The notes beneath the pieces are model-generated. The model worked only from the letters and a program-made list of their open reading frames with translations. It did not search any database and had not been told where the DNA came from. A stretch of DNA of 64,000 nucleotides from a virus, in IMG/VR virus record IMGVR_UViG_3300013131_000002, positions 1 through 64,000 of that record. One strand, given 5' to 3'. Below, one piece after another: positions 7,170 through 49,320 of the stretch. The stretch's first letter is position 1; each line of letters opens with the position of its first letter. A program made the position numbers and the translations under genes.

Positions 7170-7181
7170 TTTTGTATAATT

Positions 7182-7409: not shown

Positions 7410-7427
7410 TCAAGTCTAATTTGATAT

Positions 7428-7435
7428 CAAAGATA
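7428..7435 (-). promoter_or_regulatory. -7 promoter element TATCTTTG
   Basis: TAnnTTTG consensus 19 nt upstream of the 7409 start. Confidence 0.6.
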
Positions 7436-7483
7436 GTCAAATTCTTAGACATACCTATCCCCTTCGATTGTTTTTTGTTTCAA

Positions 7484-30194: not shown

Positions 30195-33100
30195 TTATTT
30201 GTTATAAAATTCTGAAGCTTCTTTTGGATTGAAAGTTTTGTCTACTCCAACATAGAATGGTATATTATCGTAGGCTTGTTTTTTAATCTTTCTATCTCCT
30301 TTTTTCATTCCTGATTCTGCTCTTTGGTAGAATATCTTTTTCTTGTCTACTTCAAATCCTAAAGTATATGGAAGATCATAGAACAAAGCTTGCTCTGCTA
30401 ATCCAAACATTGACTCAACCATATTTACAGTGGCTGTAGGAGATTGGATGATTCTCAAAAAGTCTTTGTAGTTATAGAATTGTTGAAGCTCAGCATTCAT
30501 ACGAATAGCTTGGTATCCAAAGAATTGTGATACTTTATCGTCTTTATCATCATCTCCCATTAACATTCCTGCTGCAACACTAGTAGTAATTACCCAAGCT
30601 GCTTGAGACAATGTACGTTTAATATCTGCTTGTTCCCATTCTGTATGCTTACCATATACTCCACGATACTTAAGTCCTGCTTTTGTTGCTTGAACCATAT
30701 AATTCATGAAGACTTTGTACATACCATTAGCAAGTACCCCAGATTCGGTATCAACATGAACTCCACGATTAGATCCATATCCCCAATGTTTACGTAAACC
30801 TGGAGAAAAGAATCGACGGAACAAGTTTAAAAGTTTACCCCACCATCTTCTTTCAGCTAATGCTCTATCTACATCTCCTTTAACTTGGTTTGTTTTTTTC
30901 ATCAAACCACTAAGCTTATTAACAAAATCCATCTGAGTTAAGTTAGCTACTCTTGGATCTAATTCTAAATTACCATTTGCTTTTTCTATCAATAGGTCAT
31001 AGAGATTTGCATCTGTACCATCTGCATTTTTAATTACATCTCCATTTTTATCTTTAAGCTTTCCCTTATAACTATCCATCAATGCAAGCATACGAACTAT
31101 TACAGCTTCGTGCTCTGCCATAGTTTGTAAAATACTCCCAACTCCTCCAACTAGAGATTTTCTTAATCTGCTACCTGTGATATTAGATACTTGATCCATG
31201 CCTAGCTGATCTGTATAAGCATCTGACCAGAGAGCAGATTTAATAAGTTTTGATTTTGGGGCAAATGCTCCCCAATCAGATATACCTGCGGCTCCAGTTA
31301 TAAACTTTGCTAATGCCCATGCATGGTTTGTCTTATTAAAGTACTGACCTACAATTCCTTCTTCAATTAATTTCTGGTTATCTAAGAACAATTGATTAGT
31401 AGCTTGAAGACCATTAAATGATAGAGCTTTTAGTGCTGTGAATCTTGTAACTGCAGAAGTAATTTTACTTGCACTTATTGACTTTCCTGCTATACCTACA
31501 GTATTTAATATATCTTTTCTTCCAAAGAATACTGATTCAATAAACTCCTCTACCATTTGGGATGTGTTACTTGTAATCCCTTCTCTTGTTTCATATTCTA
31601 TATACCCATTTCTTCTAGCATATTGATTTACAAGTGGAACATAAGCTAAAGCTCCTTCTACCAAAACTTTTCTATTTCTTATCAAATCTCTCATCAATAT
31701 AACTGATGATTGAATTTTACTTTTAGATTCAAAATCATTAGCCATTTTAACAAAGTGCATTATGGCCCCAGTTAAATCTCTTGTAACTAATGCTTCTGAC
31801 ATAACAGAAGTAAAGAATATTGGAACGATTTGCTGTCTAGCTTGAGCAGCAGTTAACTCTCCATATTCTGTATCTCCTTCAGTAATCATGAATCCTTCTC
31901 TTAGCATCTCTCTACTAGTAGCTAAGAATCCATTATTCTGCATTTGTCCTAGAGTATCAGCTTTAACTGTTGGAACCATATATGTATATGTATCCCAAGT
32001 ATTTTTAACTTGTTTAGTCTCTCCGATTTTGTCTGAGTGTTTATTATAAATATCTAGTAGTTTGTACATATATTTATAATCTTCAGTCTGTGTATTCTTA
32101 AGAGCTGTATATTTTGGATTTAAGTATGAATCATTAGGCATAACAGCATCTCCACGGAAACTATTTGAATAACTGTTGTAGATATAATTAATATCTGATT
32201 CAATCTGTTCCATCTCTACTAAAGCTAAAGCTGCTCTATCTACATCTATATCTCTATATTTATAGTATTCTTTCTCTACAGCTCTATATTCTTTTTCAAG
32301 ATCTAACTTTCTTTGCATGGCATTTGGAGAAGTCTTACTATTCTTAGCATGCCAGTCATCTATCATTCTGTAGTATCCCTTACGAAGTTCTACAAACTTT
32401 GGTTCTTTTGATTTTTTCCATTCATCATAGGCATCTCTATCCCCAATGTTCGGCTTTTTGAATTTCTTCTCAGCTTCATCGAGCATGTTATAAAAAGTTT
32501 TCCAATATCTTGTAACATCATAAGGTTGAACAAATCCTAAAACTTTAATTTCCTTTCTAATGTTATTACCTTTATTGTCTTGTTCTACAACAAAATGGCT
32601 AATAACCTCATACATATTAGCATAAGCTTGTGTAGGATTAAAGCCACTTTTACGAGCCATGAAGTTTTCATAATCTTTTGATAGACTATATTGAACATCT
32701 CTAGTTTTTTCTGCTGCTTCTAATAATGAAGCTTTTACTTCTGTTACGAATAATTGTATAGCTGTTTGAGAAGAATTGATTACTGGATCCATAAGTACAC
32801 TGTACTTAGTCTTATCCATCTGAGCATTTACAAGTTCATCAATAAGAGATTGAAGTCCTATCTTTTTTCCACGAATCTGCTTTACAAGTTCTTCAATTAA
32901 TAATTTATCTCTAGTAGGTTTATCTATAAGATCTTTCTTATAATCATCTCTAATTTTTAAAGTTGCTTCTGTTTCAATAAGCAAATTCTTTCTCATCACC
33001 CCATCCTTCTCTATACTTTGAGCTAAAGCTTCTAGCTCATCATTTAATCCTGTATTTTTATGATAGCCAAGGATTAGAGAAGCATGTAAAGGGGCACCTA

Positions 33101-34853
33101 ATTTTAAGTACTTTGTATAGGTCTCATCCATTTTATTGTTTAGAGCTATTACTTTATCTCTTAACACTTGGATGTTATCTAACTCTTGTTGAGTAACTGT
33201 TTTCTTTTTCTGAAGCTCATCTAACTTTTCTTTTACAGCATCAGATATATCTTTCATTACACCTCTAGTATTATTGCTATCATAATAAGTTCTCATGTAG
33301 TTAGCAATATTCCCAAGAATGTTAATTAGTTTGAGTCGTTCTTCTTCATCAATATTTTCTAAATCTACAGACATCTTTTCAACCATTGCAAAGTCACTTT
33401 GAGCTTTATTAAATAGTTGATTAACATAGTCTACTAGTCCTACAAAATCTTCTGCCTCTTCTACTAACTTGAGTTTTGCCTTATGAGATTTTAATAAACG
33501 TGCAGCAGATTTAGATTCCGGGGTAGTGCTTCTAGAGGCCATGTCCAAACTTTCTTGAACAGCTTTTACAGCATTTACTTTTGCAGTTTGTACTGACTTC
33601 TGTAAAGATGATAATCCCTTACTTTGCTGTTCGTATAGGCTGATAGCTCCTCCAAATTCTCCTGGATTTATGTCCCCGGCAAATAAGTCTTGAGCTAACT
33701 GAGCAGCCATATCAGTTTTAATTCCAAACTTTTTAGCAATTGCTCTAAATATTCTATTAAAGAACTGTTGAAATTTGCTTGGATTTTTATATTCTAATTT
33801 AGCTCCTTCTAACCCAATAGCAGTAGCTAATACCTCTTTATCTAGTTTCTCTTGATCCTCTGCTAACTCTGGATATTCTTCTAGTACTTTATTGTACAGG
33901 TTTGTATTTCTAAGTTCTTTTACTGCAGCTTGTACAGCAGGGTGATTATACCCTAACAAATCTACATATAAGTGACCATACTCGTGGTAGGCTGTATCTT
34001 CAGCAATCCTATCTGGATTAAGTGTAATGACTACCCCTCCATTTTTTCCAGGGCTTATTTTACCTATACTTGGAAGTTTAGGGTCATAAACTACATCTAC
34101 TTTTACTCCAACCTTTTGGAATACCTCTTGTAATCTTTTGGCCTGTATTTTTACTTTCCCTAATTGAGCTTCTCCAGTGTTAGAGAATCTTTGCTCACTT
34201 GAGTTTTCTAATCTAGCAGTTTCTGATATAACTGTTTCTGATAATTGTTGTCCTTGTGGACGACCGATCATATCTAGATAACCTTGTAAACCTTCTACGT
34301 ATCTTCTGCCTACAACACTTTGTGCTAACTCTTGCACTTCTTCCCCATAAGTTTTGAACATGTCCATTTGTTCATAAGCTTTGACTAGCTCCTCTTGGCT
34401 GTTAGTAGGGGAATTATATAATCCTAGTGGCTCTCTACGTAATTCACTTAATGCTACAGGATCTATTTTTACACTATGAGTGTCTTGACTTTTCCATTGC
34501 ATCTGTCCATTAGCATCTGCTATGCTGTATCCAGAGTTGGTAGGGCTGCTTTTTATTTTATCTGTTACAACTAAATCTCTAGTAGCTCCAAATGCAGAAC
34601 GAGCATAACTATTTATCTGTGCAATTCCATTAAGTTGGTCAGATAGAGTAGAGTTAGTAGACCCTTTATTTACATAATAATTTCCTTTGAACTTGTTGAC
34701 TAACCTTACTTTAGTCAATATATCCATTATATCTGCAGTCTTTCTAGATTTCTCTAAAGTGTTTACAAGATAGTTTGCAAGTTCAGTACTAGCTGCTGAT
34801 ACTCTTAGACCAGTGCTAGCCGTAGTAAATACATTACATTTTCTATTTGCCAT
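30195..34853 (-). CDS. Giant virion cargo protein with zincin (HEYGH) domain
   Basis: 1552 aa directly downstream of the vRNAP; TAYHEYGHL...KEVLATAIG. Confidence 0.75.
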   Translation of the reverse strand: MANRKCNVFTTASTGLRVSAASTELANYLVNTLEKSRKTADIMDILTKVRLVNKFKGNYYVNKGSTNSTLSDQLNGIAQINSYARSAFGATRDLVVTDKIKSSPTNSGYSIADANGQMQWKSQDTHSVKIDPVALSELRREPLGLYNSPTNSQEELVKAYEQMDMFKTYGEEVQELAQSVVGRRYVEGLQGYLDMIGRPQGQQLSETVISETARLENSSEQRFSNTGEAQLGKVKIQAKRLQEVFQKVGVKVDVVYDPKLPSIGKISPGKNGGVVITLNPDRIAEDTAYHEYGHLYVDLLGYNHPAVQAAVKELRNTNLYNKVLEEYPELAEDQEKLDKEVLATAIGLEGAKLEYKNPSKFQQFFNRIFRAIAKKFGIKTDMAAQLAQDLFAGDINPGEFGGAISLYEQQSKGLSSLQKSVQTAKVNAVKAVQESLDMASRSTTPESKSAARLLKSHKAKLKLVEEAEDFVGLVDYVNQLFNKAQSDFAMVEKMSVDLENIDEEERLKLINILGNIANYMRTYYDSNNTRGVMKDISDAVKEKLDELQKKKTVTQQELDNIQVLRDKVIALNNKMDETYTKYLKLGAPLHASLILGYHKNTGLNDELEALAQSIEKDGVMRKNLLIETEATLKIRDDYKKDLIDKPTRDKLLIEELVKQIRGKKIGLQSLIDELVNAQMDKTKYSVLMDPVINSSQTAIQLFVTEVKASLLEAAEKTRDVQYSLSKDYENFMARKSGFNPTQAYANMYEVISHFVVEQDNKGNNIRKEIKVLGFVQPYDVTRYWKTFYNMLDEAEKKFKKPNIGDRDAYDEWKKSKEPKFVELRKGYYRMIDDWHAKNSKTSPNAMQRKLDLEKEYRAVEKEYYKYRDIDVDRAALALVEMEQIESDINYIYNSYSNSFRGDAVMPNDSYLNPKYTALKNTQTEDYKYMYKLLDIYNKHSDKIGETKQVKNTWDTYTYMVPTVKADTLGQMQNNGFLATSREMLREGFMITEGDTEYGELTAAQARQQIVPIFFTSVMSEALVTRDLTGAIMHFVKMANDFESKSKIQSSVILMRDLIRNRKVLVEGALAYVPLVNQYARRNGYIEYETREGITSNTSQMVEEFIESVFFGRKDILNTVGIAGKSISASKITSAVTRFTALKALSFNGLQATNQLFLDNQKLIEEGIVGQYFNKTNHAWALAKFITGAAGISDWGAFAPKSKLIKSALWSDAYTDQLGMDQVSNITGSRLRKSLVGGVGSILQTMAEHEAVIVRMLALMDSYKGKLKDKNGDVIKNADGTDANLYDLLIEKANGNLELDPRVANLTQMDFVNKLSGLMKKTNQVKGDVDRALAERRWWGKLLNLFRRFFSPGLRKHWGYGSNRGVHVDTESGVLANGMYKVFMNYMVQATKAGLKYRGVYGKHTEWEQADIKRTLSQAAWVITTSVAAGMLMGDDDKDDKVSQFFGYQAIRMNAELQQFYNYKDFLRIIQSPTATVNMVESMFGLAEQALFYDLPYTLGFEVDKKKIFYQRAESGMKKGDRKIKKQAYDNIPFYVGVDKTFNPKEASEFYNK

Positions 34854-34859
34854 TTCTTA

Positions 34860-37800
34860 TTAAATTGAACAGAATGTTAACGACTCATTGTCATCACCCT
34901 CCTCTCTATTATCTTTTAACAGTACCATTGCTCCACCTTCTACTGATGTTGTAACTCCTACTTCAGGATTTATATTAGATACTCCTGACAACTCTACTAG
35001 TCTTTTTGAAATTCCAAGAGGTTGAACTCTTGTGTATACCCCACCTGTTTCTGTAGTAGAAGATTTTACAAATAATCCAACATCTTTATTTTTCTTATCT
35101 ACCAAAAGTACGAAATTATTACTTATTCCACTCACTGCAAGTTGGTCTGCTAGCTTAGAAATATTCTTTTTTCTTAACAAAGTTTTCTTTCCATGTCTCA
35201 TGAATGCATTAGCTCTAATAAAATTAAAGAGTTCATCATTCAAGTAGTCGTTGCTTTGAACATCTTTTACTTTAGTCATGAAGAATTCTACTGGAGATTT
35301 TGCAGTTACCTTTCCGGCATCTTTTCCATATCTATTTATTCTTGGGCTAGTCCAGAATTCTACTGGTATGATATCTGTAAAGGAATTAGCTCCAATGTCG
35401 AACCCACGACTAACAATTGAATGAGCTGCTAGGTCTTCTGCAAGTTCCTTGATCTCTTTTATTTGCTCAGTATTTCCTGGGTCGGTAACATATTTTTCTG
35501 GAGAGTAAAGAAGTTTTCTTAGCTCTGCAGTAAACATGTCCTTCTCAGTTCTAGAGAATCCGTATGAGTTATCAAACTTAACTGTGAAAAATTTAGCCTC
35601 CATTGAGTCATTCTTCTCATCTCTTGCAAAGTTGCTTACGAACTTATTGCCTGTTAAAGATGGGTACTTAGCTTTCATCTCATCTAATTTCTTATCGATA
35701 TTAGTATCTTTTGAAAGGTAGGTTTTTGAAAGATGCTCTTGTGTAAAGAAGTCTGCAAGTGGAGATTCTTCAACAACATCTATTTCCCCCATATCATTTC
35801 TAAGTAAAACTCTTGGAGTTAAAAGCATTCTTAAATTTAAGTTCCTAGAGATATCTCTATGTTGCTCTGGAGTAAACTGTATCTCTCCTACATTTAATTT
35901 AAGATTGTCTTTGAATGTTTTAAATGCTGGAGATGTATTAGCCGGGAAGAGGATAGATGCCATCTGCATAGCAGAGTCAGACATTCTATCATAAGCTTTC
36001 TGTGTTCCATAAATAGAATCATCTCCTAAGAATTGATCAACAGGATTGCTCATTCCATCAGGTCCTCTAAATGCTTGTGCTCCAGACTTATCGTCAAAAG
36101 CTAATCTCTTGTCTTTATATGCTTCGATACGATCTATAGAATTCATACCGTCAGCAGTATCCGGGGTAATAGTTTGGTAGAACTCCATTAGTTGAGATCC
36201 TGCTTTAGAAAACTTCATGAAATTATTCATGAATATACCTTGGGTAATATTCTTCTTATCATTTCTTTTAAGTTCAGCAAGATCTTTTCTATTCATATTA
36301 ATAGTCTCATATCTATTGATGTCATTGAGAGGAGTTAGTTTAAACTCTTTCATTGCATCTACATATGCACTATTCATCTCTGTTAGTTCTCCACCATACT
36401 TATTATAAAAAACATCTGTGAAATATCGTATAATAGGTTGGTTCAAGAAATCGTGCAGAGCTACTGTATCCCCATTGAATGTTATCCAGAATGCTTCTAC
36501 AGGTAAGGTAATAGTTCTATCATTAAGTTCGTACTGCTTAGGATTGTTAGCAGCATCCACAGCAGCAGATACATATCTACCAATTAATGTACTTGTAGGA
36601 ATAGTGGCATCTATTTTAGTAGCCTCAGTTCCTACTTTTTCCAAATGCTTTTTATAAACTTTATTGTCAAGTTTAATAGCATACTCAGGAGTTGTAACTA
36701 CTGTTCCAGCAGCTGCTACGTTTCTACCTGATAGCACATTATTCCACAATCCTTTCAACGTGTTACCGATAATTGCTCTTTCAGCAATTTCAGTTTCTTT
36801 CATTGGACTAGCAAACTCAGTATTGTTAACCAAAGAAGGATTTCTTTCTAGAATACTAGCCATGATGCTTGTCAAGCTTTCTTCATCCAAAGGTCTAACA
36901 GTTTCTGTTAAGTGCATAGGACTAGACATTACTGCTTCAATAGTATCTAAGATTACATTTGTATAAACCTCTAATGCTTTAGACCCTTCAGGTACTGCAT
37001 TTTTGATTGTGTTATCTTTGATAGCTTTATTATAGTCTAGACTTACTTTTGTTACCTCTCCTTTTTCATTCTTACTTAAGTATGGAGCTAGTATGAAAAG
37101 TTTATCTACGTCAAAGTCAGATCCCATCAACTTGGTAATATGTGGTGGAACTTGTACTGCTTTTGTATAATTATCTGGGAGGAATCCCTTAATCTTTATT
37201 AAGATTGTAGAAGATTTATCTTGGTTAGGGATACGGTATCCAATCATACGTAGAAGTTCCTCTGGAATGTTGTCTAAAGATTGCCCTGGCTCTACCCCAA
37301 ACTTACGAGCAATGTCAGGACGTATCATAACTTCCATGTGTCCTAATCTAGGTTTGCCTTCATTATCAGTTTTGATTGCATAGAAGTTTAAGTTAGAGTT
37401 TTCTTCACTACCTCCAAACTGTGCAAACTGAACTGCCTCTATACCAAGAGCTTTCTGCTTGAATACTTGGTTGTTAAACATACCAAATAAAATTTGTTGG
37501 AACTTAGTCTGGTATACAGGGAAGTCTAATGGAATAGCAAACCTTGGCATTCCACTTTCTTTATCTATTACAATGTTTAAAGCATCATCATAGTTTGATG
37601 GTAGCTTTCTTTCTAAATTTTCTTTTTCAAGAATGCCACGTATAATTTTTAAGGCTTTTAATCTAGCTTCATACTCTTCTTTGAATCGTTCACCAGATAA
37701 ACTCTTCTGAGCTTTTAGAATGCCATCAATACCTAACTCTTTGAATAAACTTCTTGTAGCTATTTCAGCCATGTTCTCAGTAGCTTCGTGGAAAAATTTA

Positions 37801-40800
37801 AGAAGTTGGTCTCCTTTGATTGCTACTTCTTTGCCTTTAATCCCTGCATTGTATTTGTAAACTCCTGCTTTATTTACATTAGCAATAGCATTCTTTTTCA
37901 ACTGTCTATTGATAATAGCTTTTTGTTTACCGGTATCTGATATTTTTTGTGGGAATCCTAATCCTCTAGAATTCAACTCTTCTACATATAAGTTTGTAAA
38001 TTCCCCAGCTTCACCTGTTACTTGATATACAGATGACTTATGGAATTTTCTAACAGACTCCACATTCACTACATCAATTTTTGAGATGTTAGGATTGTTT
38101 GCATACTGCCCTGTCTTCTCCATACGTTGACGTAAGTCATTCATTGTGGAGTTATCTTTAGTAGCTTCTTCTAATAATACTCTCCAAGAATTCTTTTCAT
38201 TAATTGGAGTAACATTATTATTAATATTTTGAAGAGACTCAAAGTATGGTTTAAAAGGCTCTATTATTATTCTCTGCCCAGCTTTTGCATTTCTTGGAAG
38301 AACCGATGTAGCTTGGTAAGCAAATATTGCAGGCCTTCCTTCAGCCTGTGCATTTTTGTATTCGTTAAAAGCATCTTCGTGGTATGCAAACCACTTACCA
38401 TCTCCTTGCATTGACTTACGATACATGTCAATTGATGCAAATCCTTGACCATCTGTACCCTCAATTTTTGTAATTGTAGGATCAAATGATTGAGCAATAC
38501 TCTTAGCTATTGCAGGATCTACTCCAGCATTTACCATTCCAGCTTCTAGATCTTTAGCTATCTTAACATTTCTATTTTCATCTGCTATAGTCATTCTTAG
38601 ATTATCATCTCTAAGAATTGCTGATGTATATGTAGGAGACATACCATATTGTCCAGCTACTCCAGGTTCTTCTACAGCTAGTTCACCAGCTATTGTCATT
38701 CTAGAAACAGGAGTTGTCAATGGAGCCATACGTTTGTAGAAGTTATCTAAGCTTTTAGTATGAGCTCTTGATCCACGGAATATTCTATTGAATTCATTAC
38801 GTGCTACAAAATCATCAAATACAAAGTCTCTTAGAACTAATTCTAATCCTCCAAGTTCTTCTACTTGCTTCATTCCTAATCTATCAGCAGCATCATATTC
38901 TATTAGCTTGCCTTTTACTTCAGCAGCTTTCTCAGTAAAATATAACATGCTTTTAGCAACCATGTCTTTTACAGACCCCTCAAACTTTGCATATCCTTCT
39001 GGATCTTCTTGCTTTAATTTTCCATTTAAAAAATCAACTACCATGTCACTCATATGACGAGTTCCATTAATATACATTTTGTCTTCTGTAGAGTTTTTTG
39101 CTGGGATAATTAAGTCAGTTACAATCTGTATTCCATTAAGCTTTCCATCAAATTGCATGAATTTAGAATCAAAAGCTCTTCCTACTAGTTTACCATTCTC
39201 ATCTCTCATTACAATTGAGAACTTACCATCTTTACCTTGTTTAGATGTGTAGTGGTAACCTTCACTCAGTAATGCTAGTGGTGCATTCTGTAAATCATTT
39301 TTTGCTTTAGCTATTCTAGCTAAGTCTTGAATAATGTAACTAGCTATAATGTCTTCTTGAGACATCTGTATTCCAAATGTAGAAGTCAGCTTTCTAGATC
39401 GTGCAAATGGAACAACATCTGCACGAGAACGGTCTCCTTGTGTAGGTATTTGATTTAGCCCTAAGTTTTTATTTGCATTATTTAGATATCCATTTAACCT
39501 TGTGATTAAACTATCTGCATTGTTGAAACTTGCATAGTCTGTAAATGCAATAAAGTCTTTCTCTCCTTTAGTAGAATCGTATACAAAGTTTTTGAATTCA
39601 GTTCTATATAAAGGGTTCTTTAAAAGCTGGAGTATTAGTCCAGTGAACTTGTTGTTAGTTAGAGGATTAGGATTGTTAAAAGGATCTGCCATATACATAT
39701 CCCACATCTTAGCAGCTTCTGGTGTTTCAGAAGTAAGAGTAGAGATAATTGTATCTAGAGATGTAGGCAAGTTCATATCATAAACTGCCGAGTTCATACC
39801 ATTAACAAAGCTTGTTCCCTTATTAGATTTAAATAATGGAACTATCGATGCAAGATGACGAATTGTTCTCTGCTCACCACCTGCTCCAAATATATTAATT
39901 GGGTTTTCTTGCGGTCCCTTATAAGCTTTAATTGTTTGTCCTTCAAATTCTAACTTAACAATTTTAGTTACAAGTTTAGATAGTTCATGATTAGGACGGT
40001 TTACGTAGTATGCATAAAGTTGTTTACCTTTTAAGAATACTAATCGATTGTTTTGGCTTACAGTTACTCCAGTGTTGAAATATTTCTGTAAGTTGTGAGC
40101 AGTCTGCATAAAGATTGTTGAGTCTCCAATGTTCATACTCATATCCCAAAGAACTCTGGCTAATGCCATTACAGGTTTAGAGATACCTGTTTGTGATTCT
40201 ACTTCTTCTGCAGAACGTAATGATTGCTGAACTACCATATAGTTCGTAGCAATGGTCTTAGCTTTTTCTTTTTTAACAGTTAAAGCTAAGTTTCCTTCTT
40301 CATCTACTGTATATTTATAGACAGCTCTAGGTTTTTCTGTTTGAACTTCTACTGAATTATTTTTCCAGTTAGTAACTTCAGCTCTCTCTACAGATTTTTC
40401 ATTAGAGTTTATTATTTTAGAAGATGTTCCAGTTTCTGTTTTATCCTCTACAAATAATAAGAATTGATTTTGATGTAAACTAAATGCAGCTCTTATTGCT
40501 GACTGATCTGCGGCTGTCAATCCTTTTAGTAAAGGCAGTACGTTTGCATACTTAGGCTTAAACTTTATTAAGTTTTCAGCTCTAGCAAGCATAGTTTGAA
40601 AGTTAGGGGACCCAGAAAATACGTTTAGTAATTCAATGTACACCTCATCTTTTGGAAGGTAAGTATTATATCCTAAGAAGTTTGCCTCTGTACTTTCTAC
40701 ACGAGATAGGATTTCTTTTACTCTACCAGTCATACCATCTGCAGGATCACTCTCAAAACTGGACTTACCATAAATCTTTTCTACGACACCGTTGTCATCT

Positions 40801-42008
40801 TCAAAGTCAATAGTTTCCTCATTAGAGTATTTGATTATAGTACCAAAGTCTCTCATATCTTCGGCTACTAATTCTCTCCATCCTATGGTTTGTATATTAC
40901 CAAACTCAGGTTCAACAGTAGTATTCCAATTGTTATAGATATCAAAGAAGATATTTCGTAACAATGGATTTCTATCTTCAAAAGCTACCGGTCTTTCAAA
41001 CTTAATTCCGTTGAGAGATGCAACAGTATCTATATAGTTTTTAGTAGCTTCTGCAAGTCTCTCTGGGTTATTAGATTTAACAGCTCTATAGTAAGCAGAC
41101 TCTACTTCAAATGCTTTTTTAGCATCTTCTAATGATACAGCATTTCCTTCTGGTGTGCTGTAGGCATTCATCAAAAAGTAATTTGCAATATCTCCTTTAT
41201 TGGTTCCTACACCAAGAGCAGTCTCTGCATTAAATCCTGGGATATCTTTTCTATCGATTAAGAATTTACTAAGAGTAGATGTAATTTCTCTAGTAGCTTC
41301 CTCTCCATACTCTTGACGATATCTGTAAGCTTTTGTTTCAGGCTTAAATGTTTCTGTGTTACGGAAAAACTTAGCAGGAATTTTATTTGACTCTACTAAA
41401 CGATATAAATCTTTTATTGCAATTTGATTTGTAGTAGCTAGTTTAATATAGCTCCATAGGTTCTTGAACCATTTAGCAATACGTTCTGGGAGAGTTCTCT
41501 CCATTGTACCTTCAGAAAGTACATACTCTCTAAAGTCTTCTGCAAGTTTTTCCTCGTAGTGAAGGTCTTCAAGCTCTTGTTGAGGAATATTTGGGTACTG
41601 TTCTCTTAAAGAATCTAATTGTTCTTTGGTAACAGGGCCATATTTTTTTCTAGCTTCGTCTATTACAAGAGTACGTTGAGCATCATTTAGCATTGAACGG
41701 TGTACAATGTGATAAGCTTCGTGATACTCTGTACCAATTTCTGCACCTCTAGATAAAAATATTGCAGAGTTTTGTACATACCCATGTACAATTCCATTAC
41801 CTATGTTTCCTAATGAATCAACAATCGTAACATCTATGTCTGGAAATCTTTCTTTTAACCATGCTGTAGCCTTATCCTCCTGTATAGGTTTGAAAAATCT
41901 TTCAGGCACATTCCCTTCATACTTATCCCATATGGATAATGCTAGTTCAGGATTTGCTTTTTCTAGAGCTTTCCACTCTGGTAGATTTTTATTAGGACAA
42001 GTTGCCAT
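34860..42008 (-). CDS. Virion-packaged single-chain two-barrel RNA polymerase with N-terminal zincin domain
   Basis: 2382 aa; TDGQGF, GYRIPNQ, MGSDFDVDKLF (DxDxD catalytic loop as in crAss-like vRNAPs), VDAA; YHEAYH near the N-terminus. Confidence 0.92.
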   Translation of the reverse strand: MATCPNKNLPEWKALEKANPELALSIWDKYEGNVPERFFKPIQEDKATAWLKERFPDIDVTIVDSLGNIGNGIVHGYVQNSAIFLSRGAEIGTEYHEAYHIVHRSMLNDAQRTLVIDEARKKYGPVTKEQLDSLREQYPNIPQQELEDLHYEEKLAEDFREYVLSEGTMERTLPERIAKWFKNLWSYIKLATTNQIAIKDLYRLVESNKIPAKFFRNTETFKPETKAYRYRQEYGEEATREITSTLSKFLIDRKDIPGFNAETALGVGTNKGDIANYFLMNAYSTPEGNAVSLEDAKKAFEVESAYYRAVKSNNPERLAEATKNYIDTVASLNGIKFERPVAFEDRNPLLRNIFFDIYNNWNTTVEPEFGNIQTIGWRELVAEDMRDFGTIIKYSNEETIDFEDDNGVVEKIYGKSSFESDPADGMTGRVKEILSRVESTEANFLGYNTYLPKDEVYIELLNVFSGSPNFQTMLARAENLIKFKPKYANVLPLLKGLTAADQSAIRAAFSLHQNQFLLFVEDKTETGTSSKIINSNEKSVERAEVTNWKNNSVEVQTEKPRAVYKYTVDEEGNLALTVKKEKAKTIATNYMVVQQSLRSAEEVESQTGISKPVMALARVLWDMSMNIGDSTIFMQTAHNLQKYFNTGVTVSQNNRLVFLKGKQLYAYYVNRPNHELSKLVTKIVKLEFEGQTIKAYKGPQENPINIFGAGGEQRTIRHLASIVPLFKSNKGTSFVNGMNSAVYDMNLPTSLDTIISTLTSETPEAAKMWDMYMADPFNNPNPLTNNKFTGLILQLLKNPLYRTEFKNFVYDSTKGEKDFIAFTDYASFNNADSLITRLNGYLNNANKNLGLNQIPTQGDRSRADVVPFARSRKLTSTFGIQMSQEDIIASYIIQDLARIAKAKNDLQNAPLALLSEGYHYTSKQGKDGKFSIVMRDENGKLVGRAFDSKFMQFDGKLNGIQIVTDLIIPAKNSTEDKMYINGTRHMSDMVVDFLNGKLKQEDPEGYAKFEGSVKDMVAKSMLYFTEKAAEVKGKLIEYDAADRLGMKQVEELGGLELVLRDFVFDDFVARNEFNRIFRGSRAHTKSLDNFYKRMAPLTTPVSRMTIAGELAVEEPGVAGQYGMSPTYTSAILRDDNLRMTIADENRNVKIAKDLEAGMVNAGVDPAIAKSIAQSFDPTITKIEGTDGQGFASIDMYRKSMQGDGKWFAYHEDAFNEYKNAQAEGRPAIFAYQATSVLPRNAKAGQRIIIEPFKPYFESLQNINNNVTPINEKNSWRVLLEEATKDNSTMNDLRQRMEKTGQYANNPNISKIDVVNVESVRKFHKSSVYQVTGEAGEFTNLYVEELNSRGLGFPQKISDTGKQKAIINRQLKKNAIANVNKAGVYKYNAGIKGKEVAIKGDQLLKFFHEATENMAEIATRSLFKELGIDGILKAQKSLSGERFKEEYEARLKALKIIRGILEKENLERKLPSNYDDALNIVIDKESGMPRFAIPLDFPVYQTKFQQILFGMFNNQVFKQKALGIEAVQFAQFGGSEENSNLNFYAIKTDNEGKPRLGHMEVMIRPDIARKFGVEPGQSLDNIPEELLRMIGYRIPNQDKSSTILIKIKGFLPDNYTKAVQVPPHITKLMGSDFDVDKLFILAPYLSKNEKGEVTKVSLDYNKAIKDNTIKNAVPEGSKALEVYTNVILDTIEAVMSSPMHLTETVRPLDEESLTSIMASILERNPSLVNNTEFASPMKETEIAERAIIGNTLKGLWNNVLSGRNVAAAGTVVTTPEYAIKLDNKVYKKHLEKVGTEATKIDATIPTSTLIGRYVSAAVDAANNPKQYELNDRTITLPVEAFWITFNGDTVALHDFLNQPIIRYFTDVFYNKYGGELTEMNSAYVDAMKEFKLTPLNDINRYETINMNRKDLAELKRNDKKNITQGIFMNNFMKFSKAGSQLMEFYQTITPDTADGMNSIDRIEAYKDKRLAFDDKSGAQAFRGPDGMSNPVDQFLGDDSIYGTQKAYDRMSDSAMQMASILFPANTSPAFKTFKDNLKLNVGEIQFTPEQHRDISRNLNLRMLLTPRVLLRNDMGEIDVVEESPLADFFTQEHLSKTYLSKDTNIDKKLDEMKAKYPSLTGNKFVSNFARDEKNDSMEAKFFTVKFDNSYGFSRTEKDMFTAELRKLLYSPEKYVTDPGNTEQIKEIKELAEDLAAHSIVSRGFDIGANSFTDIIPVEFWTSPRINRYGKDAGKVTAKSPVEFFMTKVKDVQSNDYLNDELFNFIRANAFMRHGKKTLLRKKNISKLADQLAVSGISNNFVLLVDKKNKDVGLFVKSSTTETGGVYTRVQPLGISKRLVELSGVSNINPEVGVTTSVEGGAMVLLKDNREEGDDNESLTFCSI

Positions 42009-42009
42009 A

Positions 42010-45000
42010 TTAACAGATTTCTTTTAGTATTTCGTTTGCTTCTTGTGGAGTTTTACCTAACTCTATTAAGAAGGAGTAAGTTACTTCCGATTTTTCATAT
42101 TCAATACCATCTACACTTACAGTTTGTAAAGATACAATATCTTCGTTTAATAGATCAGGATTTGATCCTTCTGTTGCTGCTACTAATGCTTGAAGGTCTT
42201 CCATAGACATAGGAGCCCCAGTAGATTGTGCAGGTGCTGGAGTAGTTGGTGTTGGAGCAGTTTCTTTTGTAACTTCCTTCTTAACCTTTATTTTTAGTTT
42301 AAGAGCCATACCTGGTCTTAAGAAATTAGATTTTAGGTTGTTAGCTTTCTTAATAGCATCTACAGTTGTTCCATATTTAGCTGCAAGAGATTTTAAAGTC
42401 TCACCTTTTTTAACAATGTGCTTTTTCCAAACCTCTTGTTCTACAGTTTCTTTACTAGCAGCTTTCTCTGCAGCAGCTTTTTTCTCAGCTTGTTGTGCAG
42501 CTATAGCAGCAGCAATAGCATCTGGTACAGCTGGGGTAGTAACAGGTACACCTGGCATTCCTGGAAGAGTTGGTAATCCCAAGTTGATATCTGCAGTGAT
42601 AGTATTTGCAGCAGGAGCAGGTTGATTTGTAGGCTGATCGAATACCTTAGCTTTCATCTCCTCCTTAACTTCTATAGCTACTCCATTAGATTCAATAGTT
42701 CCAAACTCTAATCCGATGTCAAAGAAGACTGATCCATACCCATTATTGGCTACGTCAGATGCTAAGATAGCTTTACTTCCAATTCCTTCTTTACGATCTT
42801 CCGTTGCTTCTTTCTCAGAGAATAAATAATCTGTGTAAGAAGGGTAAGTTCTTTCAGAGTTTATAGGGCTTACATATGGAGCATTGGTTTCAAGAAGGGC
42901 TTTAGAAACTTGGAAACGTTTCTGAGCAAGCTGATCTAAAAACTCTTTAACCATTACTGGCTTCAATTTTTCAAACTCTGCTTTATCTCTTGCTGCAGAT
43001 TTGAAATCTTTACCACCTTCTTCTGTTTGCTCCACTACAGTAAAAGAGAATGGGAGATCAGCATTACCTGTTCTCTTGTATTCTTCTATTGCAGGAATAA
43101 GTTTATCATATTGTACAGACACTAAGCTGTTAGCAGCAGGAGACCAGAATGTTACACGGATACCGTTCTTTCCTTCTGTAGCTCCCCAGTTTTTACTAAC
43201 TTCTTCCACATACATATAACCAGGAGCAGATACTTTAATCTTGTTAGTACCAACTATTTGGTTAAAGGTATTTACATCTCTATTTTTCAAAGATGCTATA
43301 GCAGCATCTTGTGCTTCTTGAGTTAAGAATCTTGTACTACCTTGTACTACACGGTAGTTTCCATTAGGGTCTTGTACTAAGAATGCTACAACCCCTGCAT
43401 CTGTTAAGTTATCATAGTTAAGGATTGCTTGCTCTAATGCATATGAAATTTTAGATAACTCTTCAGGCATTAAACCTTCTGTATTTCCTAATTCCCATCT
43501 ACGAGTTATAGAGCTAGTATTTCCTTCTGCATCTTTAGTTTCTACCCCGGTAGCTATAGCTACTATAGGAGTGGTGCTAGTAGGAACTCCATTAACAAAT
43601 CTTGTCCCTAATCCATTTTCAGAAGCAGGATTTACAAAGATTACATTCCCAAGTATATCACGAAGGTTGATAATATTACCTTTACTTCCAGTAGTAAACT
43701 TCTTAGATTTTATTGTAGATGTAGCTTTTCCACCATTTTTAATAGTGTCGTAAATTATTTGACGAGTATGTCCTTTGTATCCATCAGTAGAATCAGGTCT
43801 AAATCCTGTAAGCATTCCTACGTAAGTTTCTACTTGTATAGTTTTCCCAACAGAGTCTACTTTATCTTCTACTATTTTAACAAAGATTGGAACTTCCTCC
43901 CAATGTCTATCTTCTGGAAGAGAGTCCTTACCCTCAGTCTGCCACCACTTAGTATCTTCTCTTACTTCAAATACTACAGTTGTACCAGGTTTAGCTGTAT
44001 TAGGATTTCCTAAAGCTTTCTTGTCCAATGTGATAATGCCGATCTCATCTCCTTTCTCATTTACCACAATACGACTTTTTCTACGAGTGTCATTAGGAAT
44101 GCCTACAGATACTTCTGTGCTACTAGCAGTTCCTAATACTTTATAGTTATCATCTAAATCATATTCACCTTTTGTAAGTTGAATATCTAATTGCACAGAC
44201 ACTGTGTTTCCAGTAGGAACTTCCTCATCAGTTTCGAATTCGATAGGATTAACTAGTCCAACAGTAGTAACTTGTCCACCAGCTTGATCTGTATGAGTGT
44301 TACTAGACATGTCATTAGTAGCTTTTTGCTCGTCTGCTAATCTTGCTTCGATTTCACCAGGCTCTGTTCCTACTTCATCCAGCCCCGTGTCTTCAGATGT
44401 TTCTCCAGTTCGCTGACTCTGTTCTTCAGCGATTTGCCTTGCAGCAGTTTCTTCAGTTCCTTCGGCAGATACTGTTCTACGACCCAACTTGATGTCAATT
44501 TCATCGGTATAATCATTTATTTGTTCAATTTTTCTAGCAGCTTTCTTTTCATTGAAAGCTATAACTTGTCTTGCTTGAGTAATTTCGTTTTGTATTTCAG
44601 CAAGTTTTTTAGCACCCTCTACTGTGTTAGGGTCTATACTTCCAGAGTTTAGAGTATTTTGATGCTCATCAATCAATGCTTGAAGTTTATCAATCTCCTC
44701 ATCTAGTATAGCTACTTCTACTTCAAGCTCTTCAATTTTTTGACCCAAGGCCCCAACTTCTATTTGTATTCTTTCACCTCTGTCTACAAGAGTAGTACGT
44801 CTAACATTATGCATTTTTTGCATACTAGCAATAAGACCTCTTAATTTCTTAACAGTTTCATCTTTATTAGCATCTTGCAAAGTATAACCTAAAGCAGCAT
44901 AATCTGCATAAACACTATCTAATACTTTATTTAAAGTTCTGATATTAGATGAGAGTTGAAGCATCTGCATTTTAATAACTTCATTAGTTATTGCATCTAC

Positions 45001-48000
45001 AGGTAGAGTATACTCTTGGCTTATTACAGAGTCTACAATTTCTTGTATAATCTCTTGTCTGTCTTGTTCTACTTCTTGAGTCTCTTCTTCAGTCATAGTA
45101 GCAACTTGACTAGTATAGTTTCTAAATGCCATAGCTAATAATAGCTTTTCATATACAGCATCTATAACCTCTACTTCATCTTGCCCTCTACGTTTTCTGA
45201 ATGTGTAGTATTCTTGTTTATCTACATCAAATAAAGTAATGCTGCTAACTTCTCCATCGGGACTGAGGTTAACTGCATCCATAATTGTAACACCCGTGTT
45301 TTCATAACGTCTTCCTCCTATTAAGAACCCACGACCTGTGGGTGCATGTGTACGAACTCCGTCAACTTCCACTACTTCAGTATCAGCATTTGTTACAAGC
45401 TTATTTGCTTCAGTAACAGTTGGATCAGCTGCTCTTCTTTCTTCTTCTAGCATTCTTTGCCCAAGATCATCTACTTCATCTTCTGGGGTATTTACTTCAG
45501 AAGTTTTTCTAGCAGATGCATCATTAGCTATTACCTCTTTAAATTTATTTGTAAACTGCTCTAATCCTGCTAAATTTTCTATAGCATCTGCCCAGATAAA
45601 AGTTTCAGAAGGATTTGATTGCATTTGGTATTGAGCAACTACTATTAATTTTTTAGCAGCTTTATCATAGTAAACACTTAATCCAGTTACTACTACAGGT
45701 TCTTGAAACTGTGCTGCAAGTTTAATTTGAATTTGCTCTGTAACAGCTGCAAGTATTTTATCACCTTGCTTTTCTCTATTTATAAATTTAAATAAAGCAG
45801 CAAGATCATATGGCATACTGTCTACCTCATCCAATATAGAATTAACTTTATTAGTTATTCCAGCTCTTAGTTCTGAATTCTTTTTATATTTCAAGGATTC
45901 GTTATAAGCAGCTTTCATCATTGGAGACATAGAGTCATAATCTAACTTTCTCATCTCCTCAACAGATAGAGTAGAAAATTTATCTTTTCTAATTTCTGCC
46001 TGACGTTTCTTAAGTTCTTTGATAGTCTTTAAAGCTTCAGCTTTTAGAGTATCATCAGTGATATTAGGAAGTGCATTGATTAATTGTTCAGCTGTTTGAG
46101 CATGAAGTATTAAATCTTTTGCTACTTGATTTCTTCTCTCTTCTAAATTCTTACTTTGATCAGCTTGAAGTGCTTCGTAATATAAAGTACGTTTGTCTGG
46201 ATTTTTACGTAACTCTTCATATGCAGATACAGCTTGCTCTCTTGCAGCAGCTGTTGCAAACATATCTGAAAAAGCATTGTTAATTTCTTCTCTGTCTTGT
46301 GGATCTAAAGCTCGTAGAACCAGGTTCAAATGGTCTACAGTATTTTTACCCATAGAGTATTGCAACAGTTCTTCTACAGATTTAGAATCTACTTTTCCAT
46401 CAGCTCCTGGGGTAACTTTTCCAGACTTGATAGAGAACTTTAATATATTAGGATCTAATGCTGGTAATCCTTGAGCTTTTAATTTATCATTTACTTTATC
46501 TACAAGTTGATCAATTTTTGCTTCGTGATTATCCATTTCAACAGCAGCAGAGTAAAGCATATTACGATATGCTTCTGTTACTCTGATTTGAAGATCCTCT
46601 TGGTTACGTTGCTCTGCAGACATAGTCAATCTTTCCAAAGGAGTGGACCTCTCTTGGATAGGAATCATTTCTTTAATATTCTTAGCAACTTGTGTATTTC
46701 TTCTTAAAGCATCTTTAACATCTCTTACAGTAGACTGAATATCTTTTTCTGTAAAAGCTTTAGCTTGGCTTTCATTTAAATGTGGAAGAGCAAATTTTAC
46801 AAATTCTTCTGGAGTCAGTTTCTCTAGATCGTCCAACATTTCTTCATACATATCTGTAGCCCCAAACTGCTCAGCAATCATTGCTTCATTTGCTAGAGCT
46901 TTTGATAAAATATTAGCAGCAGTTTTATGATCTCCTTTCTTAGTGGCTTTATGGTAATCCTCCATCATAGCTTGAGTCTCAGAAGACATCTCTGCACGTT
47001 GTGTAATCTTAGATAGGATACCTGAGTTTCTGATTGCTAATATTTTTTCTGTAGCTTGCTTTTGTTGTTTAGATTGTCCTCTAGAAGAGAATGCAGTCAT
47101 ACCTCCACCTATCATTGCCCCTATCAAACCTTGCTCTAAACTCTCTTCTTCTGTAAAAGTCTTTTTAAATGCTTCAGCAAAATGTTCAGCTACACTAGCA
47201 GTACCGTCTGTTTGTCTTTTACTCCAATACCCTAAGTTAAATTGTTGGGCACCATACTGTGCAAGTTCTTGTCCTCCCTCGAATATTGCTCCCTTACCTA
47301 GTGTGGCACCTTTTTTTACAACTTTTTCAGCTAACTTTCCAGCTTTACTTGTAAACCAAGTAGCCTCTGTAGCAGATCCTGCAGCTCCAGTAAGTCTTGA
47401 TGCTGTTACAACTTCTTCTCCAATACCTGCAACAGGGACATTAAATCTTCCAAGCAACTTGCTTCCCATTAAAGCTGAGATCATAAACATGTTTGATCCT
47501 AAAAGGATAGGCATGTTAATAGCAAAGTTTGTATTACCAGCTGCATTTGCATATCTTTCAATCTCAGCCATCTCATCTGGTGGAATCAAGTTTCTTGATT
47601 TACCAGGATTAGCAGCTTCCCATTCTTGAAATTTAGTTTCTATATATTGTCTTTTAACATCACGAGATTCTACGGCAGCTTCTGCATACGATGCTGAGTA
47701 AGATGCTGCTAGCATTTTTCCAGCCTTCATCATTCTACCTTTGAATGGGCTGATTTGACCTGCAGCTAAATTTTCTACAGCTCGTACAGAGTTAGCACTT
47801 GCTGCCCCACCACCTCCAATTGTTCTAGTAGCTGCTGCAGCTTCTGCTCCTAATGCTTCAGATATTACACCAGCTTTTGGTCCTTTTCCTACAGCTCTTT
47901 GGATTAAGTTTTTAGCTCCACGATATGCACTTCCTGATATAGACTTTCCTTTTGTTAAATATAAAGGAGCCATAGCACCAGCAGCAAATCCTATCCCATT

Positions 48001-49305
48001 CATTACTTTGTCAAAGTAGAAGTTAGCAGAACCTTCTTCAAATGGAATCCAATTAATTTCATTACTATCTAACTCTTTTCTAGTATAGTAAAATGGCATA
48101 GCATTGCTAGCACTTTCTCTAAGTTCATCTAAATAATTTCCTAAGTCTGTATCCCAATAAGCAGCTGCTATATCTTGCCAAGCTTCTGGCCCACTTTTGT
48201 CTTGAATGGTTTTTGAAACAGCTTCTTTATATCGAGCTAGAACTTGTTTAGATCCTATTCCACCAGGTGCATTATATCCAACTGTTCCCCCAAACATAGA
48301 TTTAATAGCTAATCCTGCTTGGTAAGATCCAGATCTTTGAGCTTTCTCTTCTTTAATAGCCATAACAGCGTCATCCACTGTTAGGTTTTTTTCACGAAGA
48401 GCTCTCATTAAAGCTGCATCTGTTTCTATAGTCGATCTTAAATTTCTTTCTAAAGTAGCTTCGTCAGATGTTTTTTCTATTATAGCTTTTCTAGTAGGTC
48501 CTCCTGCAAACTGATCCTCAGCCATTACAGACTCGTCTAGATAATATTCTCTTCCGTCAGATCCTTTTACAGTTTCATGTGGGGACATCAATCCAAATGA
48601 TTCTAAAAAGTCTACAGCAGAGAATAACAATCCTGGAGTAGATTCTTCTGCCTCCAACATTGTGTGAGTTTTATTTTTTCCAGCTATATAACTTTCAGTA
48701 GCTCTTTTAGTCTCAGCATTTAATCCTGCAATCCCTAAACTTGCTAATCCTGTTGGAGCTCCAAGTAATGATTCGGTACCTGTAGTTAATGCTGTTACAA
48801 GCAAGTTACCTGCACCATATCCAAACTTTGTCCAAGATCCTTGCTTTTGAGCCCTCATGTCTTCCCAGTCATTCTCCGTAGTAGGAGTAAAACCGTTTGC
48901 CATCATCTTCCTAGCACTAGGATCTTTTGGGCCCTTACCATGTAGGAATTCTATTTCTTTGGTACCTGTCAAGAATCCACGGTTAACACCGTCATACATC
49001 TTGTAGGAATCTGTATTATTAAATGGTTTTCCAGTAAAGGGATCTAATTGACTGGCAGACTGCAGTTCATATAGATTAAATTTATTGCTATTAATATTTT
49101 TGTTAATAGCTGATACTGTATCTTTAGACACGGGATTTCCACCCATATCTAGTACAGGTCCTTTTGGTTTATTCTTTAATCCAGGTCCAGATACACTTTC
49201 TAAATTTAAAACTGCTCCTCCTGTACTTGAAGATTGGTAAGGCACTCCAGTAAGGGGATCTACCCCAGGTGATGGGGTAAAAGGGTCTTTGTTAAATTCT
49301 GCCAT
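42010..49305 (-). CDS. Giant virion cargo protein with Gly-rich hydrophobic segments and C-terminal LysM
   Basis: 2431 aa; EGGQELAQY, GLIGAMIGGG; HIVKKGETLKSLAAKYGTTVDAIKKANNL. Confidence 0.8.
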   Translation of the reverse strand: MAEFNKDPFTPSPGVDPLTGVPYQSSSTGGAVLNLESVSGPGLKNKPKGPVLDMGGNPVSKDTVSAINKNINSNKFNLYELQSASQLDPFTGKPFNNTDSYKMYDGVNRGFLTGTKEIEFLHGKGPKDPSARKMMANGFTPTTENDWEDMRAQKQGSWTKFGYGAGNLLVTALTTGTESLLGAPTGLASLGIAGLNAETKRATESYIAGKNKTHTMLEAEESTPGLLFSAVDFLESFGLMSPHETVKGSDGREYYLDESVMAEDQFAGGPTRKAIIEKTSDEATLERNLRSTIETDAALMRALREKNLTVDDAVMAIKEEKAQRSGSYQAGLAIKSMFGGTVGYNAPGGIGSKQVLARYKEAVSKTIQDKSGPEAWQDIAAAYWDTDLGNYLDELRESASNAMPFYYTRKELDSNEINWIPFEEGSANFYFDKVMNGIGFAAGAMAPLYLTKGKSISGSAYRGAKNLIQRAVGKGPKAGVISEALGAEAAAATRTIGGGGAASANSVRAVENLAAGQISPFKGRMMKAGKMLAASYSASYAEAAVESRDVKRQYIETKFQEWEAANPGKSRNLIPPDEMAEIERYANAAGNTNFAINMPILLGSNMFMISALMGSKLLGRFNVPVAGIGEEVVTASRLTGAAGSATEATWFTSKAGKLAEKVVKKGATLGKGAIFEGGQELAQYGAQQFNLGYWSKRQTDGTASVAEHFAEAFKKTFTEEESLEQGLIGAMIGGGMTAFSSRGQSKQQKQATEKILAIRNSGILSKITQRAEMSSETQAMMEDYHKATKKGDHKTAANILSKALANEAMIAEQFGATDMYEEMLDDLEKLTPEEFVKFALPHLNESQAKAFTEKDIQSTVRDVKDALRRNTQVAKNIKEMIPIQERSTPLERLTMSAEQRNQEDLQIRVTEAYRNMLYSAAVEMDNHEAKIDQLVDKVNDKLKAQGLPALDPNILKFSIKSGKVTPGADGKVDSKSVEELLQYSMGKNTVDHLNLVLRALDPQDREEINNAFSDMFATAAAREQAVSAYEELRKNPDKRTLYYEALQADQSKNLEERRNQVAKDLILHAQTAEQLINALPNITDDTLKAEALKTIKELKKRQAEIRKDKFSTLSVEEMRKLDYDSMSPMMKAAYNESLKYKKNSELRAGITNKVNSILDEVDSMPYDLAALFKFINREKQGDKILAAVTEQIQIKLAAQFQEPVVVTGLSVYYDKAAKKLIVVAQYQMQSNPSETFIWADAIENLAGLEQFTNKFKEVIANDASARKTSEVNTPEDEVDDLGQRMLEEERRAADPTVTEANKLVTNADTEVVEVDGVRTHAPTGRGFLIGGRRYENTGVTIMDAVNLSPDGEVSSITLFDVDKQEYYTFRKRRGQDEVEVIDAVYEKLLLAMAFRNYTSQVATMTEEETQEVEQDRQEIIQEIVDSVISQEYTLPVDAITNEVIKMQMLQLSSNIRTLNKVLDSVYADYAALGYTLQDANKDETVKKLRGLIASMQKMHNVRRTTLVDRGERIQIEVGALGQKIEELEVEVAILDEEIDKLQALIDEHQNTLNSGSIDPNTVEGAKKLAEIQNEITQARQVIAFNEKKAARKIEQINDYTDEIDIKLGRRTVSAEGTEETAARQIAEEQSQRTGETSEDTGLDEVGTEPGEIEARLADEQKATNDMSSNTHTDQAGGQVTTVGLVNPIEFETDEEVPTGNTVSVQLDIQLTKGEYDLDDNYKVLGTASSTEVSVGIPNDTRRKSRIVVNEKGDEIGIITLDKKALGNPNTAKPGTTVVFEVREDTKWWQTEGKDSLPEDRHWEEVPIFVKIVEDKVDSVGKTIQVETYVGMLTGFRPDSTDGYKGHTRQIIYDTIKNGGKATSTIKSKKFTTGSKGNIINLRDILGNVIFVNPASENGLGTRFVNGVPTSTTPIVAIATGVETKDAEGNTSSITRRWELGNTEGLMPEELSKISYALEQAILNYDNLTDAGVVAFLVQDPNGNYRVVQGSTRFLTQEAQDAAIASLKNRDVNTFNQIVGTNKIKVSAPGYMYVEEVSKNWGATEGKNGIRVTFWSPAANSLVSVQYDKLIPAIEEYKRTGNADLPFSFTVVEQTEEGGKDFKSAARDKAEFEKLKPVMVKEFLDQLAQKRFQVSKALLETNAPYVSPINSERTYPSYTDYLFSEKEATEDRKEGIGSKAILASDVANNGYGSVFFDIGLEFGTIESNGVAIEVKEEMKAKVFDQPTNQPAPAANTITADINLGLPTLPGMPGVPVTTPAVPDAIAAAIAAQQAEKKAAAEKAASKETVEQEVWKKHIVKKGETLKSLAAKYGTTVDAIKKANNLKSNFLRPGMALKLKIKVKKEVTKETAPTPTTPAPAQSTGAPMSMEDLQALVAATEGSNPDLLNEDIVSLQTVSVDGIEYEKSEVTYSFLIELGKTPQEANEILKEIC

Positions 49306-49312
49306 TTGAATA

Positions 49313-49320
49313 CAAATTTA
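49313..49320 (-). promoter_or_regulatory. -7 element TAAATTTG
   Basis: TAnnTTTG 8 nt upstream of the 49305 start. Confidence 0.55.

Follow-up and report, generated by a model that had tools for sequence, protein, structure and literature searches.

IMG/VR record IMGVR_UViG_3300013131_000002 is a complete phage genome of 78,251 bp with terminal repeats, and its first 64 kb (64,000 nucleotides) form the window analysed here. Three closely packed giant open reading frames (ORFs) on the minus strand of the window encode proteins A, B and C, of which B is the virion RNA polymerase (RNAP). Together the three proteins hold only four cysteines (Cys), all of them at the chain ends that face each other across the A/B and B/C gene junctions. 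We regard it as probable that two head-to-tail bonds, most likely disulfides, one between Cys2431 of A and Cys4 of B and the other between Cys2380 of B and Cys6 of C, tie the proteins into a chain of 711 kDa. The best reading of such a chain, drawn from comparison with related phages, is that it would be the post-translational equivalent of the single polyprotein that other crAss-like phages encode. The Cys pattern itself is confirmed as real, far beyond chance and conserved across Crassvirales, and the comparative evidence strongly supports a functional pairing of the facing ends.

Cysteines at the facing ends of A, B and C

The initial annotation had placed every Cys of the series at the two junctions, and a recount of the translations agreed exactly: position 2431 in A, positions 4 and 2380 in B and position 6 in C, with an interior of zero in a total of 6365 amino acids (aa). 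The outer ends of the series, namely the N-terminus of A and the C-terminus of C, carry no Cys, and neither does the 857-aa protein encoded upstream of A; both had been described in this way, and the computed sum of the three masses, 710.8 kDa, is in line with the ∼700 kDa first given for the chain. All four junction codons are TGT (Table 1). The remaining ORFs of the genome contain 178 Cys in 17,705 aa (1.0%). At this frequency ∼64 Cys would be expected in A, B and C together, against the 4 observed (P(≤4) ∼1e-22), and the chance that four randomly placed Cys would fall one in each of the four 6-residue stretches at the facing ends is ∼2e-11.

Table 1. Positions of the three giant proteins, their terminal modules and other features in the window
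Feature	Coordinates	Strand	Remarks
Protein A (2431 aa, 266 kDa)	42010-49305	minus	First chain member; positional counterpart of crAss001 gp47 and phi14:2 gp67; only Cys is the last residue
Protein B (2382 aa, 269 kDa)	34860-42008	minus	Virion RNAP, middle member; Cys only at C4 and C2380
Protein C (1552 aa, 176 kDa)	30195-34853	minus	Last member; counterpart of crAss001 gp49 and phi14:2 gp65; only Cys is C6
Codon of A Cys2431 (TGT)	42013-42015	minus	Putative donor thiol of the A/B junction
Codon of B Cys4 (TGT)	41997-41999	minus	Within the N-terminal CPN module
Codon of B Cys2380 (TGT)	34869-34871	minus	Protein end ...LTFCSI; putative donor thiol of the B/C junction
Codon of C Cys6 (TGT)	34836-34838	minus	
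N-terminal 'CPN' acceptor module of B, residues 1-40, MATCPNKNLPEWKAL...	41889-42008	minus	Carries Cys4; conserved in the window's clade
RNAP catalytic DxDxD motif of B (SDFDVDK), residues 1630-1636	37101-37121	minus	
Zincin-like HEAYH of B, residues 96-100	41709-41723	minus	
Zincin-like HEYGH of C, residues 290-294	33972-33986	minus	
LysM domain of A, residues 2296-2337	42295-42420	minus	Pfam PF01476, E 1.8e-13; PHROGs endolysin/LysM matches
857-aa cargo-like protein	49318-51891	minus	Upstream of A; 0 Cys; outside the chain

The facing terminal Cys hardly vary across Crassvirales. Among 36 homologues of B, the N-terminal Cys (at position 3-5) is found in 30 and the C-terminal one (among the last five residues) in 35; database homologues of B span 89% to ∼21% identity, and nearly all of them carry both terminal Cys and 0-2 others. 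C2380 is one of only 13 invariant columns in the alignment of B. For A, C2431 is an invariant column in an alignment of 15 homologues, and the seven full-length homologues in the database each have a Cys as their final or penultimate residue. Over their last 200 aa the A-type donors have diverged too far to be aligned, and the Cys alone is invariant. C homologues have a Cys at position 3-6 in 44 of 47 cases, the other three being two truncated proteins and one with a doubtful start, and C6 is likewise an invariant column.

The layout is also found in well-known phages. In crAss001, Cys occur in gp47 at 2339 of 2341, in gp50 at 5, 1334 and 2404 of 2412, and in gp49 at 5; in phi14:2 they occur in gp67 at 1797, the last residue, in gp66 at 3 and 2179 of 2180, and in gp65 at 3. 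These two sets are orthologous or positionally equivalent to A, B and C, although the window proteins differ in the LysM domain of A and the N-terminal zincin motif of B. Dulem virus 41 and DAC15 conform to the same layout. Protein A is encoded on the strand opposite to B and C in crAss001, DAC15 and IAS virus, and both TGT and TGC are in use as junction Cys codons across homologues. Since A lies on the other strand in crAss001, the pattern is not an effect of the nucleotide sequence at a gene junction, and an artefact of this kind was rejected on the grounds of both strand and codon use. At locus L063 (L063:4682-17098), B has 23 Cys and C has 6, and the terminal Cys are still kept (5 and -1 in B, 5 in C). 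Interior Cys are thus not depleted in every case, while the junction pair is universal.

Split and fused genes

A single-sequence search with B gave no related loci, and an alignment query was needed. The alignment-based scan of IMG/VR (545 matches) gave 80 loci, which were assigned to types from their ORF arrangement and from where the catalytic motif lies; 53 loci were left after near-duplicates had been taken out, and Cys at outer ends were counted within 12 residues of the end. In this non-redundant set, Cys were present on both facing ends in 24 of 25 split A/B junctions and in 38 of 39 split B/C junctions. The sum of 62 out of 64 is effectively 64 out of 64 given the nature of the two exceptions: L050 has a mis-called start, the true start being MAKKC, and in the IAS record B is broken by X residues, with an upstream piece that starts MSLYC. 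None of the outer ends carried a Cys (0/30 N-terminal and 0/46 C-terminal, together 0/76), and the frequency of Cys in the interior was 0.038%. The positional counterparts of the 857-aa protein in L008, L012, L016, L018 and L020 were also free of Cys.

Where genes are fused, the Cys of the corresponding junction are missing. Eight A+B fusions (3581-4686 aa) have neither an N-terminal nor a junction Cys and often contain a single Cys in total; they retain the C-terminal one, and their C proteins retain the N-terminal one. Polyproteins of the A+B+C type (seven complete, 5005-5639 aa, and five partial) all have 0 Cys. In p-crAssphage gp44, a fusion of B and C, Cys3 is kept and the C-terminal Cys is absent. 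According to BLAST the fusions are collinear with A-B-C, and the few internal Cys found in them are far from the junctions. The comparison of orthologue termini that had been proposed along with the initial annotation thus came out in its favour, with terminal Cys conserved in pairs across Crassvirales and absent from fused junctions. A polymerase-core tree implies eight or more changes of architecture, with three or more origins of all-fused forms; the clade that is sister to that of the window (support 99) consists of all-fused, Cys-free forms. At L084:4350-13225, B is broken by a ∼1.3-kb gap between a 1377-aa N-terminal and a 1138-aa C-terminal ORF, with no Cys pair at the break; a genuine split is a less likely cause than an intron, an insertion or faulty assembly.

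The CPN module of B has the consensus MxxCPNKxLxxWKxL..., and it heads protein C in three loci in which A and B are fused, L030 (17404), L036 (16167) and L038 (9266). The donor tail of L038, ...LGKLLKEIC, resembles the tail of window A, ...EANEILKEIC. The combination of a CPN module with an LLKEIC-like tail is accordingly found at the A/B junction in the window and at the B/C junction in L038, which fits a reusable donor/acceptor pair. A hidden Markov model (HMM) made from the first 55 aa of C proteins detected B N-termini in seven lineages, including phi14:2 gp66 (E 5e-10 to 2e-3), whereas neither the 241 control N-termini nor the 30 outer ones scored below E 0.18. Because this C-derived model recovers B N-termini and no controls, the Cys-bearing N-terminus is a reusable small module. 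In the fused locus L017, a linker rich in Pro and charged residues forms the A/B junction, and the tail of window A and residues 1-38 of B are without counterpart there. An AlphaFold2 model of B residues 1-330 was poor overall (mean predicted local distance difference test score, pLDDT, of 58) and was used only for the first 40 residues and the zincin core; residues 1-40 are predicted to be ordered, with short helices and pLDDT of 75-86.

Linking chemistry and alternative readings

A precedent for a bond between such ends exists in the cyanopodophage A4 (Anabaena phage A-4L), in which cryo-electron microscopy revealed a disulfide between gp27 Cys1715 and gp26 Cys5 in the pre-ejectosome inside the capsid (PNAS 2025, PMC12002296). 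The C-terminal helix of gp27 sits in a cleft of gp26, and the bond lends stability to a folded, five-fold (pentameric) ring above the portal (PMC12002296). Examination of the A-4L genome showed that Cys1715 is the only Cys of gp27 (1717 aa) and Cys5 the only one of gp26 (1114 aa), and the pair is kept in all four divergent relatives inspected (Saffermanviridae-type phages). As in the window, a lone Cys near the upstream C-terminus faces a lone Cys near residue 5 of the next protein (-1/4 and -3/6 in the window, -3/5 in A4), and the proteins concerned are consecutive giant internal or ejection proteins that are otherwise Cys-free, with the pair conserved in relatives. The two systems differ in that A4 has one link rather than the two in series proposed here and no RNAP in the chain, and the A4 paper claims neither threading nor interchange with gene fusion. 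The resemblance is functional and not one of family membership.

In crAss001, gp47, gp49 and gp50 are present in the virion by mass spectrometry, and the structure contains inter-subunit disulfides in the tail and the portal vertex, with the cargo cysteines unmentioned (Bayfield 2023). The counterparts in phi14:2 were also detected in virions by mass spectrometry; according to the phi14:2 preprint, a single polyprotein replaces the three in some phages, and cysteines or disulfides are not mentioned there (Drobysheva 2020/2021). Nor does either work speak of a link that would join the three proteins. We found no published description of such Cys links in Crassvirales in the literature searched. 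The statement in the initial annotation that none was known therefore holds for this order, but not for the principle, of which A4 provides one demonstrated link. A disulfide is the likeliest linking chemistry in crassviruses by analogy, because the same signature is a disulfide in A4 and because the crAss001 virion has inter-subunit disulfides elsewhere.

The following sequence of events would account for the pattern. A, B and C would be made separately in the reducing cytoplasm, and the short C-terminal donor tail of one protein would dock on the small ordered N-terminal acceptor module of the next. The two thiols would then oxidise, within the capsid or after release, and the near-total lack of other Cys would prevent wrong pairings. 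A link within a few residues of a chain end would leave the product thread-like, so that it could be packed 1:1:1 and exit through the tail as one N-to-C thread, and thiol reductants of the host cytoplasm would afterwards separate the parts. Of the head-to-tail disulfide chain originally proposed, the facing Cys as pairs that join A to B and B to C have stood up, being conserved, absent at outer ends and absent when the genes are fused; we infer the bond in crassviruses, the docking, the time of oxidation, the threading and the reductive release.

Several considerations weigh against this chain or against parts of it. The cytoplasm in which virions assemble is reducing, and the habitat of gut crassviruses is anoxic. 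No thioredoxin (PF00085) was detected in the whole genome, nor was an Erv1-type oxidase (PF04777), although in the latter search the control was also unmatched. Independent contrasts on the tree all ran in the expected direction (5/5 for A/B and 3/3 for B/C), but they are few, and sign tests taken singly are not significant (p 0.06 and 0.25). Fusion removes both ends at once, and the joint loss of their Cys would thus be compatible with homotypic or other pairings as well. The charges of the tails are complementary, the C-tails with a Cys being net acidic (-0.5, -0.8) and the N-tails with one net basic (+0.9, +1.4); this speaks for the chain, but the trend is modest and carries little weight. 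The A4 bond lies in a folded ring, so that by analogy it offers no evidence for threading and would speak for a role in assembly as much, and phmmer searches with A4 gp26-gp29 against all collected crAss A, B and C proteins gave no match at E≤10. The crAss001 capsid has a large cargo zone, the content of which is not resolved in the maps (Bayfield et al.).

Orphan terminal Cys also exist and belong to the same side of the balance. A basic 323-aa protein of the window (62201-63172, minus strand; no PHROG match) ends in its only Cys (...KRMGGKKC); no partner with a Cys at the N-terminus is apparent, and the residue perhaps serves in homodimer formation or in attachment to a tail or ring protein. 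In p-crAssphage (L004, BK010471.1), the 857-aa product gp47 (4976-7549) is encoded upstream of A, resembles a cargo protein and has its only Cys at residue 856. The protein that follows, gp46, is Cys-free, which makes the Cys of gp47 a further C-terminal orphan.

A serious rival retains the same disulfide pairs and lets them serve assembly: A, B and C would be locked in a folded internal body, similar to a pre-ejectosome core, and would not form one thread. This would provide equimolar co-packaging, with one packaging signal being enough, and the bonds may break before or during ejection. The folded A4 ring speaks for it, as does the size of the cargo zone in crAss001, and fusion into a polyprotein would serve co-packaging equally well. 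It leaves unexplained, however, why the Cys lie within 1-10 residues of the chain ends when a stabilising bond could sit anywhere on an interface, and why all other Cys have been purged; on balance we hold assembly alone to be unlikely, though it deserves to be taken seriously. A different topology is improbable. Homotypic dimers (A-A through C-termini, C-C through N-termini, polymers of B) or links to the portal barrel or to capsid auxiliary proteins would draw on the facts that structural proteins of crAss001 do form disulfides and that orphan terminal Cys occur in the 323-aa protein and in p-crAssphage gp47. Yet the distribution in all split forms, with Cys at the C-terminus only in A, at both ends in B and at the N-terminus only in C, is the layout of a linear chain, and natural polyproteins have their parts in the order of that chain. 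Fusion should leave anchors to structural proteins in place, whereas the all-fused forms have no Cys, and the bond known from A4 is heterotypic and joins a C-terminus to an N-terminus.

The facing Cys might also pair without a disulfide, either by sharing a metal ion in the manner of a zinc clasp or by acting as a cysteine switch on the zincins that follow in B and C. An HExxH motif does lie downstream of both N-terminal Cys. Known zinc clasps use four ligands, and here each end offers a single Cys, with neither a His nor a second Cys conserved in its vicinity. The N-terminal Cys is also present on proteins without a closely following zincin motif, the zincin motif stays in Cys-free fused homologues such as L017 (HEGFH), and the A4 map shows a disulfide; the cysteine switch was rejected for the persistence of the motif in the fusions, and chemistry of this kind is very improbable as a whole. 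The last possibility, inheritance by chance or as a by-product, would make the terminal Cys tolerated leftovers of a general depletion or products of constraints on start and stop regions. Suppression of Cys is indeed documented for the ejection proteins of N4-like phages (Schitoviridae), whose near-complete lack of Cys has been read as an adaptation to passage through the envelope (PMC11445570). The terminal Cys are nevertheless invariant on a par with the catalytic Asp residues. They are found on either side of effectively every one of the 64 junctions and at none of the 76 outer ends, the pattern follows the architecture through at least eight changes, it persists in crAss001 with A on the other strand, and both Cys codons are in use. 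A by-product is already contradicted by these observations, and its probability is close to nil.

In the human gut no phages are more abundant than the crassviruses, which have ∼0.7 MDa of polymerase-associated protein to pack and inject. The terminal-Cys rule offers a concrete hypothesis that can be tested cheaply in the cultured phages crAss001, phi14:2 and DAC15. If true, the two head-to-tail links would account for three genes that are interchangeably fused or split across the order and for the extreme depletion of Cys. They would also supply a redox-cleavable tether that could time the release of the polymerase and a simple sequence rule by which sets of co-ejected proteins may be recognised in uncultured phage genomes. 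Only tentatively, and with more doubt than confidence, can the idea be extended to terminal-Cys stitches as a general, evolvable alternative to fusion for phage ejection proteins. A portable acceptor of ∼50 aa and a short donor tail would then rejoin any break in a polyprotein after translation, and the chain would be threaded N-to-C through the tail and cut in the reducing cytoplasm, leaving the RNAP free and active only inside the cell; such stitches would have had independent origins in Crassvirales and in Saffermanviridae-type cyanophages.

Identity of the proteins and their neighbours

Three aspartates of the DxDxD motif of B (D1631, D1633 and D1635) are conserved in the alignment. With tblastn, B matched 90 crAss-like records, including phi14:2 gp66 and crAss001 gp50, at 20-37% identity (E 3e-10 for phi14:2 gp66, g066), and its polymerase core is only ∼20-25% identical to the counterparts in crAss001 and phi14:2. 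The virion RNAP of N4 (gp50/gp71) is also a giant injected polymerase that is nearly free of Cys. It has been described as beads on a string, with an N-terminal domain, the polymerase and a C-terminal domain, in a 2026 N4 paper that calls the relationships of the three crAss proteins unresolved. This three-part layout resembles A-B-C and the fused crAss polyproteins. Unlike the window proteins, the N4 RNAP is a single polypeptide without terminal Cys pairs, has a T7-like single-subunit fold and is unrelated in sequence, whereas the polymerase of the window has a DxDxD motif of the two-barrel type and belongs to a set of three separate ORFs.

The order of minus-strand ORFs is 1725, 1237, 857, 2431, 2382 and 1552 aa. 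The 1725-aa product matches phrog_15100, annotated in PHROGs as 'virion structural protein'. A large virion structural (muzzle-like) protein is followed by Cys-poor cargo and then by A, B and C, and the same gene order is seen in phi14:2, Dulem virus 41 and the IMG/VR loci; the neighbourhood is of the Crassvirales type. By analogy with these phages, A, B and C are probably packed and injected by this crAss-like phage. PHROGs gave no match for B, C, the 857-aa or the 1237-aa protein, Pfam yielded nothing beyond the LysM domain of A, and sequence and profile searches of the PDB with A, B and C gave no match.

The LysM domain, which is peptidoglycan-binding, sits ∼95 residues ahead of the C-terminal Cys of A. 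LysM is also present in some homologues of the C family (P0072, P0076, P0077 and P0080). Both HExxH motifs lie downstream of an N-terminal Cys and hence shortly after a junction, and the HEAYH of B aligns with the HEGFH of L017. Zincins of this type could cleave the linkers of polyproteins in fused lineages. Outside the window, a 187-aa protein on the minus strand (G000:C1:68207-68770) has 14 Cys and ends in ...TATCACGC, in contrast to the Cys-free cargo.

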